The translations under genes and the position numbers were made by a program. A model generated the notes under the pieces. That model did not search any database. It saw nothing but the letters and a program-made list of their open reading frames with translations, and was not told the origin of the DNA. A DNA stretch of 11,130 bases from a virus. Below are positions 2,725 to 10,356 of the stretch, piece after piece; position 1 is the first letter of the stretch, and every line of letters begins with the position of its first letter. The stretch lies in UHGV virus genome UHGV-0057427. The stretch is one strand, 5' to 3'.

Positions 2725-2802
2725 CAAGAGAAACAACAAACAGGCAGGACGCCCACGAAGTATCCGCCTGGGGCATATGAAGTCCAGGATGATTCGTTAG
2801 CA

Positions 2803-2830
2803 ACAAAAAAGCGCCCTACAGGACGCTTAG
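2803..2830 (-). terminator. Rho-independent terminator of the minus-strand zinc-ribbon gene (possibly bidirectional)
   Basis: On the minus strand: AAGCGUCC-UGUA-GGGCGCUU stem-loop (one G-U pair) followed by UUUUGUUG, about 40 nt after the TAG stop at 2867-2869. Confidence 0.65.
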
Positions 2831-2866
2831 CTCTTTAACAATCTGGATATCCACAACAGTAGTAAT

Positions 2867-3358
2867 CTACAGATTGCCGTTAAGTTTTCTGGACAACTCC
2901 TCAATGGATGGAGGCGATACGTAATCCGGATTTTTATTCATCAGAAACTTATTTTCACAGTGGAGGCACCTGCTTTTATGAAAAAGCTCATCTTCGCTAA
3001 CCGGGAATGGTTGAAGTATCGATACTATCTTTTGTCCAAAACATTTTGGGCAAAGATGCATGGTTATGCTGCCACCGTTCACGATTACCTCCTTCGAGTA
3101 TACAAAAGTACCCGACTCAAGTTGGTTAAGGATATAGCCTTCCGTCTGAGCCTCAAAGTTTTCGAATTCTGCAATTTTAGCTTTGAGAGAAGCATTTATT
3201 TCTTGATAAGAGCCCACCAGTTCAACGAGAGACACGCATTCGCGCTGAATAGACGCAAGCTTTGAGTTTAGCTCACCAATAGCCGCATTTACTTCAGCTT
3301 GAGTTTTTGCCTCGTTCATTAGTTTTGCAATCTGGGCTGTTTCACGAATAGCCGTCAT
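2867..3358 (-). CDS. Coiled-coil protein with C-terminal CxxC...CxxC zinc ribbon (163 aa), unknown function
   Basis: The track ORF 2867-3646 begins with a P/R/G-rich artefactual extension. ATG at 3358-3356 gives MTAIRETAQIAKLMNEAKTQAEVNAAIGELNSKLASIQRE... (heptad-like helical N-half) then HLCPKC-x27-CLHC. A terminator follows. SD is weak and a GTG at 3382 is an alternative start. It sits in the slot between repressor and early-left operon, on the opposite strand to both. Confidence 0.55.
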   Translation of the reverse strand: MTAIRETAQIAKLMNEAKTQAEVNAAIGELNSKLASIQRECVSLVELVGSYQEINASLKAKIAEFENFEAQTEGYILNQLESGTFVYSKEVIVNGGSITMHLCPKCFGQKIVSILQPFPVSEDELFHKSRCLHCENKFLMNKNPDYVSPPSIEELSRKLNGNL

Positions 3359-3851
3359 TGCTGCCGTTAATTCAGCGATCACATTGAATACTCTTATTGT
3401 TGTTGGGGATATCCAGATTAACCGAATCCTTGTTGTTGGGGAATAACCAGGTCCACCTCGCCTGATGTGGCTAAAAGCAGGCACATAACAGCTAAGTATT
3501 TTCAACCAGAGAGAATCCTTAGCGTTGTGGTGAATGCGGCTCAGCGCACGCGGGTTAAGGTTGAGGCTGACAGTCGACCTTCTGTGGATACCCACCCGCC
3601 CGGGGTGCAACCTTCGCCAGGCACCGGGAGGCACCCGGCACCACAACTTTATGCTGTGTGTAGTCCTGGCGGTACCAGCTTGTACCCTTGCTTCCGGCTG
3701 GTACCGTCCTTTTTACAAAACAGAGAAGAGCATCACCGGACGACGGGCTCATAACCCAATCCATCCGGGCGGCTGCCACCGCAGGTGTTCTTCTCTGTTT
3801 TGTGGAGAAACCAACCGACCTTGCAGGGTCGATATGATGAGGAGCAGCAAA
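3359..3851. promoter_or_regulatory. Long GC-rich structured noncoding region between the divergent zinc-ribbon gene and the early operon (direct repeats, terminator-like hairpin, 15-bp long-range inverted repeat)
   Basis: Direct repeats ATTGTTGTTGGGGATATCCAG (3396-3416) and CTTGTTGTTGGGGAATAACCAG (3429-3450), with a third degenerate copy near 3512-3533. Hairpin GGTACCAGC (3671-3679) / GCTGGTACC (3697-3705) followed by T5 (3710-3714). Perfect 15-bp inverted repeat ACAAAACAGAGAAGA (3715-3729) / TCTTCTCTGTTTTGT (3789-3803) enclosing 59 nt. ORFs here translate to low-complexity P/G/R-rich sequence. Confidence 0.5.
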
Positions 3852-4279: not shown

Positions 4280-5104
4280 ATGTCTCAGAACTTAGACGCA
4301 ACCGCAATTAATCAAATCCATGCCCTTATTTCTGCTCAGGGTGTTAATGAAATTATCAGTAAGATTGGTGCCGATGCTGTGGCATTGCCTGAGAATTTCC
4401 GCATTCATGATCTGGAAAAATTTAATTTAAATCGCTTCCGTTTCCGTGGTGCGCTTTCCACTGCCAGCATCGATGACTTTACCCGTTATTCTAAAGATCT
4501 TGCAGATGAAGGCACCCGCTGCTTTATCGATGCTGATAATATGCGTGCCGTCAGTGTGCTTAACCTGGGTACTATTGATGAACCAGGTCACGCAGATAAC
4601 ACCGCCACTCTCAAACTGAAAAAGACAGCACCGTTCTCTGCCCTGTTGTCTGTTAACGGCGAGCGTAACTCCCAGAAGTCACTGGCAGAATGGATTGAAG
4701 ACTGGGCCGACTACCTTGTGGGCTTTGATGCTAATGGTGACGCCATTCAGGCAACCAAAGCGGCTGCGGCGATCCGTAAAATCACAATTGAAGCGAACCA
4801 GACCGCTGATTTTGAAGATAATGACTTCAGCGGCAAACGCTCCCTGATGGAGTCTGTCGAAGCGAAGACCAAAGACATTATGCCAGTGGCATTTGAATTT
4901 AAATGCGTTCCGTTTGAAGGTCTGAAAGAACGTCCGTTTAAATTACGCCTCAGCATTATCACTGGCGATCGTCCTGTACTGGTACTACGCATTATTCAGC
5001 TGGAAGCAGTGCAGGAGGAAATGGCTAACGAATTTCGTGATCTGCTTGTTGAGAAGTTCAAAGACAGCAAAGTAGAAACCTTTATTGGTACTTTCACCGC
5101 CTGA
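4280..5104 (+). CDS. yfdQ: YfdQ-like prophage protein (274 aa)
   Basis: ATG with GAGGA SD; length equals my recollection of K-12 CPS-53 YfdQ (274 aa) and it is followed by an HD-domain protein of YfdR size. The assignment is by size and synteny, not by alignment. Confidence 0.6.
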
Positions 5105-5231
5105 TTTCATTACTGCAAATGCCCCTGCGGGGGCATTTATGGAAACGTAATTAACTCAATAATCACCGGATGGTGAGGGCATCCTTTTACCAGAATTCAG
5201 CGCGGTGCAGTGCATATACGTGGAGAACAAA

Positions 5232-5768
5232 ATGTCATTTATTAAAACTTTTTCCGGGAAGCATTTTTATTATGACAGGATAAATAAAGACAACATCGAT
5301 ATTAACGATATCGCGGTTTCCCTTTCAAATATCTGTCGCTTTGCAGGACATCTTTCACACTTCTACAGCGTCGCCCAACATGCGGTGCTTTGCAGCCAGC
5401 TGGTACCGCAGGAATTTGCTTTTGAAGCGTTAATGCATGATGCAACAGAAGCTTATTGTCAGGACATCCCCGCGCCACTGAAACGCCTTCTTCCTGACTA
5501 TAAACGGATGGAAGAAAAAATAGACGCCGTAATCCGTGAGAAATACGGGTTACCCCCGGTTATGAGTACACCCGTGAAATATGCCGATCTCATCATGCTG
5601 GCAACCGAACGCCGCGATCTCGGGCTTGATGATGGCTCTTTCTGGCCTGTACTGGAAGGCATCCCGGCAACAGAGATGTTCAACGTGATTCCACTGGCAC
5701 CGGGCCATGCCTACGGGATGTTTATGGAACGTTTTAACGAGTTATCGGAGTTACGCAAATGCGCATGA
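5232..5768 (+). CDS. yfdR: HD-domain phosphohydrolase, YfdR-like (178 aa)
   Basis: ATG at 5232 preceded by GGAGAA; protein contains H...HD motifs (AQHAVLCSQL...EALMHDATEAY) typical of HD-domain 5'-deoxynucleotidase-like proteins; length 178 aa matches my recollection of K-12 YfdR. The track start at 5205 lacks an SD. Confidence 0.7.
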   Translation: MSFIKTFSGKHFYYDRINKDNIDINDIAVSLSNICRFAGHLSHFYSVAQHAVLCSQLVPQEFAFEALMHDATEAYCQDIPAPLKRLLPDYKRMEEKIDAVIREKYGLPPVMSTPVKYADLIMLATERRDLGLDDGSFWPVLEGIPATEMFNVIPLAPGHAYGMFMERFNELSELRKCA

Positions 5769-6121
5769 ATGTTTTCGAAATGGAAGGGTTTCTTCGTGGG
5801 AGATGTGTACCGCGAGATCTCAAAGTGAATGAAACAGATGCTGAATACCTGGTGCGCAAATTCGATGCGCTTGAAGCTAAATGTGCGGCACTGGAAAACA
5901 AAATAATACCAGTGTCAGCTGAACTGCCACCAGCAAATGAAAGTGTTCTGTTATTTGATGCTAATGGAGAAGGCTGGCTGATTGGCTGGCGTTCTCTCTG
6001 GTACACCTGGGGACAAAAAGAAACCGGAGAATGGCAGTGGACATTTCAGGTCGGGGACCTTGAAAACGTCAATATCACTCACTGGGCAGTAATGCCAAAA
6101 GCACCGGAGGCTGGAGCATAA
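5759..6121 (+). CDS. Hypothetical prophage protein, 120 aa (yfdS-like by size and position)
   Basis: ATG at 5759 overlaps the yfdR-like stop by 10 nt, with GGAG 8 nt upstream; compact operon organisation. Confidence 0.5.
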   Translation: MRMNVFEMEGFLRGRCVPRDLKVNETDAEYLVRKFDALEAKCAALENKIIPVSAELPPANESVLLFDANGEGWLIGWRSLWYTWGQKETGEWQWTFQVGDLENVNITHWAVMPKAPEAGA

Positions 6122-6345
6122 TGACCACATTTACCAATAAAGAACTGATTAAAGAAATTAAAGAGCGTATCAGCAGCCTTGACGTGCGAGACGATATTGA
6201 GCGCCGTGCTTATGAAATCGCACTTGTATCTCTGGAAGTAGAGCCAGATGAACGCGAAGCCTATGAATTATTCATGGAAAAGCGTTTCGGTGACTTAGTA
6301 GATCGTCGGAAAGCAAAAAACGGCGATAACGAATACATGGCATGA
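6121..6345 (+). CDS. Small acidic hypothetical protein, 74 aa
   Basis: ATG overlaps the previous stop (TAATG); sequence MTTFTNKELIKEIKERISSLDVRDDIERRAYEIALVSLEVEPDEREAYELF is charged and helical with no recognised motif. Confidence 0.45.
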   Translation: MTTFTNKELIKEIKERISSLDVRDDIERRAYEIALVSLEVEPDEREAYELFMEKRFGDLVDRRKAKNGDNEYMA

Positions 6346-6425: not shown

Positions 6426-6620
6426 ATGAACAACTTAATGACAACTAAACAAGTCGCCGACTTCTGTGGCGTTTCAGTATCAACAGTACTTCGCTGGAAC
6501 AGCGTAAACAGGAGGACAGGCCAGAAATACAGGCCAGATTTTCCAGATCCTGATATTAAATCCTGCCCAAATAAATGGGCATCACGCAAGATTTATAGGT
6601 TTGCGGGAATTATTGAGTAA
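6426..6620 (+). CDS. Excisionase/AlpA-family HTH DNA-binding protein (64 aa)
   Basis: ATG at 6426 has GGAGGG 6 nt upstream. N-terminus MNNLMTTKQVADFCGVSVSTVLRW is the typical excisionase-family HTH (T-x-Q-V-A...G-V-S...T-V-x-R-W). It is the last gene of the early operon, near the integrase. The track start at 6342 adds an unlikely extension. Confidence 0.55.
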   Translation: MNNLMTTKQVADFCGVSVSTVLRWNSVNRRTGQKYRPDFPDPDIKSCPNKWASRKIYRFAGIIE

Positions 6621-6629
6621 CGTGTATTA

Positions 6630-6659
6630 GTCACAGATGTGAACAGACACATCTGTGAC
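6630..6659. repeat. Perfect 12-bp inverted repeat (hairpin or protein-binding dyad) immediately after the excisionase-like gene
   Basis: GTCACAGATGTG (6630-6641), 6-nt loop aacaga, CACATCTGTGAC (6648-6659); no U tract follows, so it is not a canonical intrinsic terminator. Confidence 0.5.
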
Positions 6660-6983
6660 ACAGAACCAAATCTAATCTGAGTGTCCACTTTGTGGTGTGA
6701 GTTCAACCGATGGATGCAACACACAGGCGGAAGCTGAATGCATACTCACCTTTGTATCCCAGCGTGCTGTAACAATGAACAACAACACTCTGGTGATTTG
6801 ACGAGTGCTTAAATTCTTTCAGTAACAATGTATTGTTAGTTTACATAGTTGTAAATAAATATAGTTTATTGTAACATTTTGCTTGCAATGTCATTTAAGC
6901 AACCTGCTTACTTTGAGGGCTTTGATGATAGATGAATCCTTACTAAAATTATCATTTTTATGTATTGATTGAAGAGAAGATTA

Positions 6984-8984
6984 ATGATAGATAAATCAAT
7001 TACTAACCCTGGTTTCCATAAGCAGTTTCTATTAGAAAGGTTCAATGCTGATGAACAAAAAATATTAAAGTTATTATCAAAAGGATGGTATTTAACTAAT
7101 TCTGGCGAGGAGTTACAAATTGCTCAATCCAGATATAATTATTTTCTGATGAAACCTACACCAAAAACCTCTGAAATGTTCAACATTGAGAGAGAGATTG
7201 TTTGTGTATTTAGTAACTACGATTATTTTGAACCAAGAACATTAGATTTTTTCGAACAAGTTTACATGCGTCTTCCAAAGATGCGCACAGAGATGGTTTG
7301 TGCTGTTCTAATTGGCAGAGCTCCTGATACAGAAGAAAAGGTTGAACAGCTTCTTAAAGCTGATCCAGAGCATCAAATCATTGTACCTGTTAGTTATACT
7401 GAAATGATGTGCACAGATGCACTTCGAACACTTGAAAATAGATTTAGAAAACATTTCTACTCTCGAGATTTATTCTCCTTTTTATCTCCACTTAAAAAAG
7501 ATACATACTTTTTTGGTCGTTCAAATCTTATCAATGAGATTGTAAATCGATTCCAATCTGGGGAGCACACTAGCCTTTTTGGTCTTAGGAAAAGCGGAAA
7601 AACATCGATTGTATATGCAATCCAGAGACGTTTAGAGGCAAAAGGAGATTGTTTTGTATCATTAGATTGCGAAAGCCCATCAATACATGGCCTTCGCTGG
7701 TATGAATTACTTGAGAAACTAGTATTATTATATCTAGAGGCAAAAAAATCTAAAGTTAAAATTAACACATCTGGTAGATATGATGTTAAGAATGCTGCAG
7801 AGAGCTTTGAAACAGATATATTAAAAATTTACAACTCAAAAAAAACAGCAAGTGCTATATTTATTTTCGATGAAATTGAAAGAATTACACCGACAACGGG
7901 AGCTTCGATTCACTGGAGAGAAGAAACCGATTTTATATACTTTTGGCAGACAATGCGCGGTTTTTACCAGAAACATCCGTCTGTTTTCTGTTATATGTTA
8001 GTTGGCACAAACCCAAGTTGTATAGAAACACCATCATTATTGGGGCATGACAATCCAATTTATGCTTCAATTCAAAGCCAATATGTTCCTCCTTTTACTG
8101 TTGATCAAGTTAGTCAAATGGTTACACGTTTAGGTGATTATATGGGATTAAAATTTGACAATTTGATCACTGCAAAACTGGCAGAAGACTATGGCGGACA
8201 TCCATTTTTAATTCGCCAAGCTTGCAGCCAAATTAACAAGCTAATCCCTTCAGATAGACCTGTAACAATTGATAAATCTCTATATAATAAGTCTAAGATC
8301 GAGTTTAGGAACAACTCTCAGGAGTATTTAGCAATGATGATTCAGGTATTGTCGGAATGGTATCCTGATGAGTACGAAATGCTATGTTTACTCGCTCAAG
8401 GGGATATGGATAGTTTCAATTCATTTGCTCAGGATCATACATCTTATACTCGACATTTAATTGGCTATGGGCTTATTCAAAAAGGCACATCTGGTTATTC
8501 CTTTAACCTTGAGGAAATTTCTGATTTGCTTAGAAAAAAACATCAACATGAAAGATTAAACCTGACAGATGAAGAAAAGGTTCAAGAGATTTCAATTAGA
8601 AGAAATCGCTTAGAAAAAGGTTTGCGGATACTTGTCAGGAACACATTAAAAATATATAAGGGTTCAAATAAAGCAAAAGATGCTGTTATTTCTGCAGTTC
8701 CTGATGGGCGAAAATCAACATTACAAAATTACGATTTATCCAAACTATTAGATCCTGATTCATCTCCATTATTCTTTCTCGAATTAATTAACATAATTAC
8801 GAGAGAGTGGGTGATTTTTGATAATGTTTTTGGGATTAATAAAGAAAAAATAAAAATTATGCTTGAGGAAATTAACACTAAAGGACGTCCAGATGCACAT
8901 GCAAAATGTATTGACGAAGATGATTTTCAGCAATTAAGGCTTTACTTCAAAAAGCTTGAGTTAATACTTCAAGAGTGGTTATAA
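6984..8984 (+). CDS. P-loop NTPase with STAND/ORC-Cdc6-type AAA+ motif order, unknown N- and C-terminal domains (666 aa); candidate defense cargo
   Basis: Walker A GLRKSGKTS (nt 7581-7607) preceded by FFGRSNLINEIVNRF, Walker B IFIFDE (nt 7860-7874), sensor-1-like MLVGTN, GxP-like YGGHPFLIRQ. Codon usage is visibly AT-rich compared with neighbours. First ATG at 6984 with purine-rich SD; track start 6969 is TTG. Stands alone between xis-like and int. Confidence 0.8.
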   Translation: MIDKSITNPGFHKQFLLERFNADEQKILKLLSKGWYLTNSGEELQIAQSRYNYFLMKPTPKTSEMFNIEREIVCVFSNYDYFEPRTLDFFEQVYMRLPKMRTEMVCAVLIGRAPDTEEKVEQLLKADPEHQIIVPVSYTEMMCTDALRTLENRFRKHFYSRDLFSFLSPLKKDTYFFGRSNLINEIVNRFQSGEHTSLFGLRKSGKTSIVYAIQRRLEAKGDCFVSLDCESPSIHGLRWYELLEKLVLLYLEAKKSKVKINTSGRYDVKNAAESFETDILKIYNSKKTASAIFIFDEIERITPTTGASIHWREETDFIYFWQTMRGFYQKHPSVFCYMLVGTNPSCIETPSLLGHDNPIYASIQSQYVPPFTVDQVSQMVTRLGDYMGLKFDNLITAKLAEDYGGHPFLIRQACSQINKLIPSDRPVTIDKSLYNKSKIEFRNNSQEYLAMMIQVLSEWYPDEYEMLCLLAQGDMDSFNSFAQDHTSYTRHLIGYGLIQKGTSGYSFNLEEISDLLRKKHQHERLNLTDEEKVQEISIRRNRLEKGLRILVRNTLKIYKGSNKAKDAVISAVPDGRKSTLQNYDLSKLLDPDSSPLFFLELINIITREWVIFDNVFGINKEKIKIMLEEINTKGRPDAHAKCIDEDDFQQLRLYFKKLELILQEWL

Positions 8985-9081
8985 GTGAACGCAATAAATT
9001 AGTGTCATTTACCAATTAAATTTTATACCTAGCCCTACTTCGTTGTGGCAGGTATATGATTAAGCACTTAAATCAGCCCGC

Positions 9082-10356
9082 TTATCGTTCAAAGCGGGCT
9101 GTCAGATTTGATTGAGTCCTACTAAGCAAACTATCAGTTGTGTCCGCACTAGTACAAGTAATGATCGATTCAACTCTCTCCCACCATGCCTGGTAGGCTT
9201 TACGCTGTTCTTCTAGATAATCGCTCTTGTCATAAACTTGCCATACCCCTGGCAGTTTATGACCTAGCATTATTTCTGCAATATGAGGCGCAGTAAGATC
9301 AGAAAAGTTTGTTCGTGCTGTTCGCCTCAAATCATGAAGAGACCAATGAGGGAATTGATACCCCAAACGCCGCCATGCGTACTGCATTAAATTGTAAGGC
9401 AGCGACTGCAATGATGTCCGACCAACGGGTTCCCTGCTTCCTTCCTTAGTAAAAAGCATATCGGAACCATTATTCATAGAAATAGCGTACTTTATAAGCT
9501 CTTCAACCGGTTCAATAATGGGCCGCTTTAGCGGTTCGCCCGTTATCTCCCCAGTCTTATGTCGTTCTGGTGGTACAGTCCATACTTTATTAATGAAATC
9601 AAAATCGTCCACCCTGGCGGTAATTAGCTCTGAACTACGGCAGCCAAAATGCAGCAATAGTTTAATGAAGGCCCGGTATTTAGGAACCATTCGAGAACCA
9701 TCGATCGCAGCATAAAGGATTTTAATTTCATCATGTGTCAGAAACCGTTTCTTCTGACCTTTACGGATATCCATATCTTTACCCGTGATATCCGACAACG
9801 GGCGAGTTTCAATGAGCTTTCTCTTATACGCCCAGACATGGGCCTGCTTTGCGTTAATTAGCAATCGGTCTGCTATTGCTGGAGTCTTAGTGCTAAGAGG
9901 CTCCAGGACTTCTAACCAATCATGCAATGTAGCTGCATCGTGAGGGATATTCCCGATTTTAGAGAACAGGTGCAGCTCAAACGAGCGGAGTATCTGTTCA
10001 GAACCTTTTTTATTTTTTACACAATATGCTTCATACCAGGCACGGATCACAGACTCTACCGTCATGGCTTCAGTAGCTTTTCGTTTTTCAGCCTGCTTGA
10101 CCAATCGTGGATTACGGTTTGACTCGAGTTCACCACGGAGACGGGTAACTTCTTCTCTGGCCTCTTTTAATCCAGTTGCCGGGTAAGTTCCGATATCAAG
10201 ACGCTCACCTTTCCCTGCCCATTGATAACGATATTGGAACACTACGCGACCTTTCGGTGATACTCTGACAGACAGACCATCACGATCGGATTTAACCAAA
10301 ACCTTATCACGTTCCTTTCCAACGACTGAACGCAACCACGCATCAGACAGCGCCAT
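9082..10356 (-). CDS. int: Phage integrase, tyrosine recombinase (424 aa)
   Basis: N-terminal arm-binding-type region (GLSVRVSPKGRVVFQYRYQWAGKGERLDIGTYPATGLKEAREE), C-terminal catalytic signatures HDLRRTART and conserved Tyr region (LGHKLPGVWQVYDKSDY). It lies adjacent to the host junction. Confidence 0.9.
   Translation of the reverse strand: MALSDAWLRSVVGKERDKVLVKSDRDGLSVRVSPKGRVVFQYRYQWAGKGERLDIGTYPATGLKEAREEVTRLRGELESNRNPRLVKQAEKRKATEAMTVESVIRAWYEAYCVKNKKGSEQILRSFELHLFSKIGNIPHDAATLHDWLEVLEPLSTKTPAIADRLLINAKQAHVWAYKRKLIETRPLSDITGKDMDIRKGQKKRFLTHDEIKILYAAIDGSRMVPKYRAFIKLLLHFGCRSSELITARVDDFDFINKVWTVPPERHKTGEITGEPLKRPIIEPVEELIKYAISMNNGSDMLFTKEGSREPVGRTSLQSLPYNLMQYAWRRLGYQFPHWSLHDLRRTARTNFSDLTAPHIAEIMLGHKLPGVWQVYDKSDYLEEQRKAYQAWWERVESIITCTSADTTDSLLSRTQSNLTARFER

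Follow-up and report, generated by a model that had tools for sequence, protein, structure and literature searches.

A lone mobile NTPase gene in a prophage cargo slot: a candidate single-gene abortive-infection module with a putative HEPN effector

Genomic locus of the NTPase gene

The virus genome UHGV-0057427 was analysed as a single stretch of 11,130 nucleotides, referred to below as the window, and was found to be a degraded CPS-53/KpLE1-like lambdoid prophage adjoining yjjG. Between a small xis/AlpA-like open reading frame (ORF) and the integrase gene int, this prophage carries one gene encoding a protein of 666 amino acids (aa), the NTPase protein, which is the subject of this study (Table 1). 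The gene may be regarded as a credible single-gene abortive-infection candidate. In the PGAP/RefSeq annotation, the identical 666-aa product is WP_097318268.1, 'ATP-binding protein'; an in-frame TTG at 6969, upstream of the ATG, is the mechanical start of the ORF and would yield 671 aa. An intact 2-kb ORF with 34% G+C that recurs at full length in more than 1,000 sequence clusters far exceeds what could have arisen by chance.

The G+C content of the gene was computed to be 0.338, with 0.257 at third codon positions (GC3), versus 0.451 (GC3 0.395) for int and 0.42-0.50 for the remaining prophage genes. The lower G+C relative to the neighbouring genes, which had been judged by eye in a preliminary description of this DNA, was thereby confirmed. 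The approximately 360 bp of AT-rich noncoding DNA that the description had placed upstream of the gene were also found (6621-6983, 363 bp, G+C 0.36; the 3' 245 bp, 0.31). However, this region was not 'full of short dyads': it contained just two inverted repeats of at least 9 nt, and the best of them (6630-6659) belongs to the prophage backbone and not to the cargo. As had been described, the gene stands alone and is convergent with int.

The limits of the cargo slot were determined by megablast of the window against four sister prophages located at the same yjjG site. Backbone homology ended at 6669-6685 on the left and restarted at 9078-9151, inside the 3' end of int, on the right. In the sister prophages, the same slot was found to contain Dsr1 (PADLOC E=0), an AIPR/AbiU protein (E 2.6e-111) or uncharacterised ORFs. 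Therefore, at least two occupants of the slot are recognised defence genes, and the cargo position proposed earlier was upheld. The more specific placement between an excisionase and an integrase gene was correct as regards int, which has integrase domains, whereas the label 'excisionase' is weak, the HTH_17 and MerR matches of the left-hand ORF being sub-threshold (E ~1e-4). This xis-like ORF was 86-90% conserved in the four sister prophages and is left unannotated by PGAP in strain MB06234, in which the tail genes and yfdP of the prophage are pseudogenes. Among 5,426 complete E. coli genomes, int was found in 700 and the NTPase gene in only two; the NTPase gene region is 100% identical between the copies in two unrelated E. 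coli strains. The xis-int slot of this common prophage family appears to be an exchange site for defence genes, several of its occupants being uncharacterised.

Some further observations concern the slot and its borders. One sister prophage (L014) carries in the same slot a gene for a 413-aa protein (4632-5873, minus strand), and another (L016) a pair of genes for proteins of 160 aa and 150 aa (4931-5413 and 5455-5907, minus strand), all without a PADLOC match. Because the slot also holds Dsr1 and AbiU, these occupants are further uncharacterised defence candidates. On the left, 10 bp past the xis-like ORF, lies a perfect 12-bp inverted repeat (6630-6659; GTCACAGATGTG / CACATCTGTGAC, 6-nt loop), which the sister prophages share and beyond which their backbone gives way to the variable slot. 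A T-run is lacking, and the repeat could serve as a binding site for a protein or mark a recombination boundary instead of acting as a terminator. On the right, int encodes 424 aa here versus 407 aa in the sister prophages. Homology to the Klebsiella copy of the cassette described below reaches 9120, into the last ~13 codons of int, and the homology of the sister prophages starts at varying points (9078-9151). Because the limits of homology vary in this way, the DNA for the C-terminal tail of int seems to have come with the cargo, so that a cargo-swap junction lies within int.

The gene was found to be part of a mobile cassette. By blastn, a copy in a Klebsiella P2-like prophage (L002) aligned over 6739-9120 and a copy on an IMG/VR contig (L009) over 6774-9095, with 83-85% identity (83% for Klebsiella); the flanks of the cassette showed 79-83% column identity to these copies. 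These alignments indicate that the gene is horizontally acquired and mobile and travels with its own 5' region, and the conservation of this region suggests that a promoter lies within 6739-6983. A single promoter-like site (6922-6949) was detected there, the -35 element of which is unconserved, and the counts from promoter and terminator scans were not above the shuffled expectation. The hairpin between the two convergent genes is partly conserved in the Klebsiella copy, lacks a clear T-run and gave no signal in the terminator scan; it is a possible bidirectional terminator.

A 17-nt direct repeat (6922-6938 and 6981-6997) copies the first codons of the NTPase gene and thereby creates a 15-codon upstream ORF at 6925-6972 (MIDESLLKLSFLCID). 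This ORF and the repeat were considered as a leader and were ruled out, both being unconserved in the Klebsiella and IMG/VR copies. Because the repeat is absent from these copies, it is probably the scar of a local duplication.

Table 1. Features of the NTPase gene, its product and the surrounding slot (window coordinates)
Feature	Position	Strand	Remarks
666-aa ORF: N-domain, STAND-type NTPase and putative HEPN domain	6984..8984	+	ATG 6984, stop 8984; frame intact
N-domain, aa 1-166, restriction-endonuclease-like alpha/beta fold, putative sensor/regulator	6984..7481	+	predicted structure
STAND/ORC-Cdc6-type NTPase module, aa 175-520	7506..8543	+	P-loop core, helical lid, winged helix
Walker A GLRKSGKTS, aa 200-208, K206	7581..7607	+	invariant in 43 close homologues, at least 90% conserved in 70 distant relatives
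Walker B IFIFDE, aa 292-297, D296/E297	7857..7874	+	conserved in 43 close homologues; D296 and E297 at least 90% conserved in 70 distant relatives
Lid GxP motif G404 G405 H406 P407, followed by R411	8193..8204	+	within YGGHPF, aa 403-408
H491, winged-helix recognition helix	8454..8456	+	invariant in 70 distant relatives; helix 486-494 in the model
Probable Swt1-like HEPN domain, aa 527-666, predicted RNase effector	8562..8981	+	AlphaFold2 helices; PF18731 matches of relatives
HEPN motif R635-P-D-A-H639, preceded by N631	8886..8900	+	R635 and H639 invariant
Mobile cassette, ~2.4 kb: gene, 245 bp 5' and ~135 bp 3'	6739..9120	+	blastn homology to other copies
AT-rich 5' region, presumed own promoter	6739..6983	+	conserved in Klebsiella and IMG/VR copies
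Candidate -10 element TAAAAT	6944-6949	+	part of the sole promoter-like site
Purine-rich ribosome-binding site	6971-6980	+	upstream of ATG 6984
G+C-rich hairpin, 10-bp perfect stem, 8-nt loop	9074..9101	.	between convergent genes; overlaps the int stop codon
Variable cargo slot	6686..9077	.	between the conserved xis-like ORF with hairpin and the int 3' end
xis/AlpA-like helix-turn-helix ORF, prophage backbone, left border of slot	6426..6620	+	sub-threshold HTH_17, HTH_23 and MerR matches
Tyrosine integrase gene int, right border of slot	9082..10356	-	Phage_integrase, Arm-DNA-bind_3 and Phage_int_M matches

Domain organisation of the NTPase protein

A full-length AlphaFold2 (AF2) model was obtained with 43 sequences; its mean predicted local distance difference test score (pLDDT) was 86.9. 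The model consists of three parts, which are split by a disordered linker at aa 167-174 and a short linker near aa 520. Conservation was followed in close homologues and in a distant set of 70 relatives with 30-46% identity, over which only nine columns were invariant.

The preliminary description had listed the central motifs GLRKSGKTS, IFIFDE, LVGTN and YGGHPF, in this order, and three N-terminal strands; all of them were located. The sensor-1-like LVGTN occupies aa 339-343, and its N343 is at least 90% conserved in the 70 distant relatives. G404, G405, P407, R411 and H491 are among the nine invariant columns, and the NTPase motifs as a whole (Walker A, Walker B, GxP, R411 and H491) are conserved over relatives of 30-91% identity. 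In the AF2 model, a helical lid is present, and aa 475-507 form a helix-turn-helix plus a beta-hairpin. By analogy with STAND proteins, H491 may be the counterpart of their nucleotide-contacting 'MHD' histidine.

Structure comparison showed that the central module was closest to PF01637-type archaeal ATPases, namely PAB2304 (2qen, with a figure of 20.0) and SSO1545 (2fna, 18.6). Plant NLR NB-ARC domains and CED-4 (~17), ORC/Cdc6 (14-16), TnsC (14-15), MalT (14.1) and SeAvs3 (12.4) followed, and MuB was also among the neighbours. The Pfam STAND models matched the window protein below their cut-offs (nSTAND1, 25.1 bits versus 27.1; nSTAND6, 20.1 versus 27.7), with no match to NACHT or NB-ARC; other sub-threshold Pfam matches were to AAA_14, AAA_16, AAA_35 and ATPase_2. 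The STAND/ORC-Cdc6 type named in the preliminary description was retained, since both Walker motifs, the lid GxP, the winged-helix histidine and the structural neighbours all fit it, with Pfam scores below the gathering threshold. Judged by sequence and model, the module appears to be a STAND or an ORC/Cdc6-like AAA+ NTPase.

The C-terminal residues 529-665 are all-helical in the AF2 model (pLDDT mostly 85-94). The family HEPN_Swt1 (PF18731) matched three of four close homologues (E 7e-4 to 0.04) and, at E <= 0.01, nine of the 70 distant full-length relatives (best 2.4e-5). With the C-domains of relatives taken in isolation, 14 of 29 matched at E <= 0.1 (best 1.5e-6), nearly the whole profile being covered. 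It was the only recurrent Pfam family on this domain, as no other was found in more than two C-domains. R540, E544 and R548 of helix 1, together with R635 and H639, are invariant in the C-domain alignment. The motif N631-x3-R635-x3-H639 has the form Rx3H in the clade of the window protein and the canonical form Rx4H in 9 of the 29 relatives. Profile searches of PDB sequences with the full-length alignment or the C-domain alignment found no relative. It is probable that the C-terminus is a divergent Swt1-like HEPN domain and a putative RNase.

The N-domain was also modelled separately (pLDDT 85; predicted template-modelling score 0.83) and showed the topology alpha-beta-beta-beta-alpha-beta-alpha-beta-alpha-beta-alpha. 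A restriction-endonuclease-like fold was thus suggested by the structure prediction that had been proposed for this part; the best Foldseek matches, to the RPB5 N-terminal domain, were weak (E >= 8e-3). This RPB5 domain is a non-catalytic member of the restriction-endonuclease-like fold. Residues E24, E71, R85, D88, R101, E140, R161 and D162 are conserved family-wide, and the signature D...(D/E)xK was absent from the N-domain alignment: strand 2 has no conserved acidic residue, and strand 3 carries LxK in the close clade, with K57 unconserved more widely. Because these catalytic residues are absent, the predicted domain is more likely a sensor or regulator than a nuclease. It is retained in all C-terminal variants, and in some relatives it is preceded by a cold-shock domain (8 of 70) or an OST-HTH/LOTUS domain (4 of 70). 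Because of these extensions, nucleic-acid recognition may be assigned to the N-terminal end. Such extensions, 90-380 aa long and with cold-shock and OST-HTH/LOTUS domains, were seen in relatives P0143, P0147, P0155, P0180 and P0188.

Exchange of C-terminal domains

Several relatives were found to match the window protein just over aa ~10-520 and then to diverge. In P0160 and P0174, a TIR_2 domain takes the C-terminal place (E 5e-12 and 7e-17, above the gathering score), and in P0198 and P0239, this place is taken by SLFN_AlbA_2 (~1e-13). A census of 70 diverse members gave HEPN_Swt1 in nine, TIR in four and Schlafen in one. Because HEPN, TIR and Schlafen domains are exchanged on a constant chassis of N-domain and NTPase, the C-terminus is probably a swappable effector, with the exchange point at about residue 520. 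One relative, P0172 (848 aa), diverges already past aa ~418, and its remainder has no Pfam family.

By these data, the layout that had been proposed at the outset, with an N-terminal effector, the NTPase and a C-terminal sensor, is probably reversed: it is the C-domain that is HEPN-like and swapped for TIR or Schlafen domains, and the N-domain is without catalytic residues. Nor did it hold that neither terminal domain could be named, since the C-terminus resembles a Swt1-like HEPN domain and the N-domain a restriction-endonuclease-like fold.

Distribution of the family and genomic contexts

Full-length homologues of ~664-669 aa were found to be abundant. A word-indexed search gave more than 1,000 clusters (90% identity) at E <= 1e-3, and an exhaustive search gave 1,747 representatives (50% identity clusters) at E <= 1e-3, 428 of them at E <= 1e-30. 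The hosts are Gammaproteobacteria, Betaproteobacteria, Alphaproteobacteria, Planctomycetota (Phycisphaerales) and Acidobacteriota (Thermoanaerobaculia). Across Klebsiella, Limnobacter, Shewanella and Pseudomonas, protein identity is 74-91%; because these genera are distant, such values point to recent horizontal transfer. The homologues are annotated only as 'ATP-binding' or 'hypothetical', save one 'adenylyl-sulfate kinase' and one 'AAA-like domain'.

In the Klebsiella variicola P2-like prophage, the gene for a 91%-identical protein lies between gpV (baseplate) and gpS (tail); defence hotspots within P2 late genes have been described (2026 preprint, 10.64898/2026.02.27.708500). The Citrobacter copy is located at the end of a lambdoid prophage, after dinI, and the Aliivibrio copy at a prophage end, adjoining a type II restriction enzyme and a methylase. 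The P. aeruginosa copy resides in a small integrase islet, and the Competibacter copy lies amid Mrr-like, Fic and insertion sequence (IS) genes. Lone insertions amid housekeeping genes were found in Rhizobium, Shewanella, Serratia, Rhodanobacter and two further assemblies. No neighbour gene was common to the 13 contexts examined, which often were accessory slots of prophages; therefore, it may be concluded that the gene acts alone. As candidate partners, a 150-aa ORF upstream of the P. aeruginosa copy, an MtlR-like ORF from a metagenome and the Mrr-like ORF of Competibacter were considered and rejected, each being seen once and without a PADLOC match.

Comparison with known systems

No full-length profile match of the NTPase protein was found in PADLOC-DB v2.0.0, PHROGs v4 or NCBIfam 20. 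In agreement with the earlier suggestion that the system is undescribed, PADLOC placed the window protein and the 70 relatives in no described defence family and gave no Avs or bNACHT match for them. Their matches to PDC-S01 and mad8 were weak and confined to the P-loop, so membership in these families was rejected. No paper naming the family was found in the literature on STAND, HEPN, TIR and Schlafen defence, Swt1 HEPN, nSTAND1/6 and P2 hotspots, and WP_097318268 was not found in the DefensePredictor supplements, as far as the contents of the files reached. Lee et al. 2026 (PMC12803255) distinguished 589 STAND clades, of which 198 are defence-associated, prophage-encoded ones included; the NTPase family could be among these clades.

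The NTPase protein resembles Avs and NLR-like proteins in the coupling of an NTPase switch to an effector. However, it is not an Avs member. Its effector is C-terminal, whereas that of Avs is N-terminal; its putative sensor is the 166-aa restriction-endonuclease-like N-domain; and its NTPase comes nearer to the PF01637-type archaeal ATPases than to NACHT or the Avs clades. Pfam and the AF2 model showed no sensor built of TPR, WD40 or other repeats in the protein, only ~140 aa following the winged helix. It is also much shorter than Avs, as had been noted earlier (666 aa versus 2,028 for SeAvs3 and 1,534 for Avs4). Its nearest structural neighbours, PAB2304 and SSO1545 (PF01637, ATPase_2), share 15% identity with it, and of their chains of ~350 residues, the central ATPase module alone aligns; they have no counterpart of the N-domain or of the HEPN domain.

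In PrrC and RloC, an N-terminal NTPase is combined with a C-terminal RNase of the HEPN class, which is latent and is released by phage infection to cut tRNA. Set side by side by description, these proteins are the nearest functional analogy for a suicide RNase of the NTPase-to-HEPN kind. However, their NTPase is of the ABC/Rad50 type, whereas that of the NTPase protein is of the AAA+/STAND type, and the sequences do not match. PrrC resides within a type Ic restriction-modification system, which keeps it silent, whereas the NTPase protein is solo and has an extra N-domain; a restriction-modification pair was adjacent in just one of the 13 contexts.

Anantharaman et al. 2013 (PMC3710099), where PrrC and RloC are also treated, described HEPN domains of the Swt1/Abi2 clade fused to AAA+ or STAND NTPases as predicted conflict systems, e.g., the AAA+-HEPN protein Ava_2192 and STAND-TPR-S1-HEPN proteins such as Npun_F6454. 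The HEPN subfamily is probably the same, and RNA-binding OB-fold accessory domains (cold-shock or S1) recur in both groups. The published examples differ in that HEPN is N-terminal, some contain TPR or S1, and the NTPases are other ones (DUF499-type AAA+ in Ava_2192); the order of a restriction-endonuclease-like N-domain, NTPase and C-terminal HEPN is undescribed in that work. Dsr1 and AbiU share with the NTPase gene the position in sister prophages and the character of single-gene, horizontally acquired, exchangeable cargo. They have no homology to the NTPase protein: Dsr1, a SIR2 NADase, has a TPR sensor, and AbiU/AIPR is unrelated.

Proposed function and alternative explanations

The core idea of the preliminary description, an undescribed lone NTPase as a defence candidate in prophage cargo, was supported by the occupants of the slot and by the domain architecture. 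We estimate a probability of about 0.6 that the gene, as cargo of the prophage, is a mobile immune or abortive-infection module that is complete in a single protein and acts by a HEPN mechanism.

Several observations weigh against this estimate. The C-domain of the window protein itself has no Pfam HEPN match, every PF18731 score of the relatives is under the gathering cut-off (27.5 bits), and Rx3H falls one residue short of the canonical Rx4-6H. In about half of the contexts, the gene is simply inserted in the chromosome without defence neighbours. PHROGs contains no related family, and no copy was detected by megablast among 50,697 deposited phage genomes. Finally, the prophage that hosts the gene is degraded.

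The following mechanism may be proposed. At rest, the STAND-type NTPase would be a closed monomer, probably ADP-bound, with H491 acting like the MHD histidine. An infection cue would be met by the N-domain; because of the fold of this domain and the cold-shock and OST-HTH domains of relatives, phage nucleic acid or nucleoprotein is the most likely cue. Nucleotide exchange and ATP binding (K206, D296/E297) would then lead to oligomerisation, by which the C-terminal HEPN domains would be paired into composite active sites (R635, H639). The active RNase would cut tRNA, rRNA or mRNA, and the halt of translation and of phage production would amount to abortive infection. In sister clades, the same switch would fire a TIR or Schlafen/AlbA_2 effector. 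The defence function, the trigger, the oligomerisation and the RNase activity with its targets are what we infer from the domain anatomy, the conserved motifs, the swapping of effectors, the absence of a conserved partner, the mobility of the gene and the slot shared with defence genes, all of which were observed. A broader and rather doubtful generalisation is that the family represents compact bacterial NLR-like receptors, in which a degenerate restriction-endonuclease-fold N-domain, at times aided by cold-shock or LOTUS domains, senses phage nucleic acid and replaces a protein sensor of the repeat type, a minimal PF01637-related STAND switch transmits the signal and HEPN, TIR or Schlafen effectors are placed at the C-terminus, the reverse of the Avs arrangement.

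Apart from the abortive-infection module, other explanations were considered. The two ends could have opposite roles, with the effector nuclease at the N-terminus, as it is in Avs3/Avs4, and the sensor in the helical C-terminus. This appears improbable: D...(D/E)xK is not conserved in strands 2 and 3, K57 varies in the wider family, and Foldseek ranks the non-catalytic RPB5 N-domain first; the C-domain is just ~140 aa long, carries HEPN catalytic residues and behaves as an effector in its exchange for TIR or Schlafen. A selfish toxic or addiction module, or a weapon used between elements (prophage versus plasmid or satellite), would agree with a lone gene for a probable toxic RNase that rides diverse mobile elements and IS-rich regions and about half of whose copies are isolated insertions, and no antitoxin-like partner was seen. 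This interpretation is nevertheless unlikely, considering that an NTPase switch with a swappable effector and a slot shared with Dsr1 and AbiU are typical of phage defence and that a constitutive toxin without an antitoxin would be lost; the anti-phage and addiction functions can also coexist.

It is very unlikely that the protein is a housekeeping ATPase of replication initiation, packaging, transposition targeting or RNA processing with no role in conflict. Its structural neighbours include ORC/Cdc6, TnsC and MuB, and the source annotation says merely 'ATP-binding protein', as would be expected of such an enzyme. However, the gene is sporadic (2 of 5,426 E. coli genomes), has a foreign G+C content and changes its location without a conserved operon partner; replication, packaging or transposition genes are not consistently adjacent in the contexts examined; and TIR, HEPN and Schlafen C-termini are effector domains. 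Equally hard to credit is an inactive relic, i.e., an intact gene that is silent or without function in the cargo of a decaying prophage. The pseudogenes for the tail and yfdP in strain MB06234 and the promoter-like sites, which do not exceed chance, would agree with decay, but the reading frame is intact with all catalytic and structural motifs kept, the copies in two unrelated E. coli are 100% identical, and the Klebsiella protein is 91% identical and has a conserved 5' region.

If the abortive-infection module is real, a widespread single-gene immune system would be added across many bacterial phyla, and 666 aa would make a tractable model of STAND activation. The architecture, with a small putative sensor in front of a minimal switch and an exchangeable effector behind it, is unusual; one sensor-switch chassis driving three effectors is a natural experiment, and the protein may be an example of an NLR-like protein that senses nucleic acid rather than protein.

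Additional features of the window

The ORF at 6121-6345, a neighbour of the xis-like ORF, is a truncated pseudogene in the annotation of strain MB06234. A second variable slot lies at 2747-3666 beside a cI-like repressor gene, and sister prophages L014 and L017 lack this segment. Its ORF at 2867-3358 (minus strand) encodes a 163-aa coiled-coil protein with two CxxC pairs, which is hypothetical in every annotation. The temperate phages PhiR49_1 and PhiR29 carry this protein with 100% identity, and its counterparts in Klebsiella phages are ~48% identical; the ORF could be a further gene with an accessory or exclusion function. In addition, approximately five 15-bp iterons were found at 327-449 (consensus CAGATTTTGACGGGT), with related copies at 298-336; from its sequence, the array at 327-449 looks like the iterons of a phage replication origin or operator.

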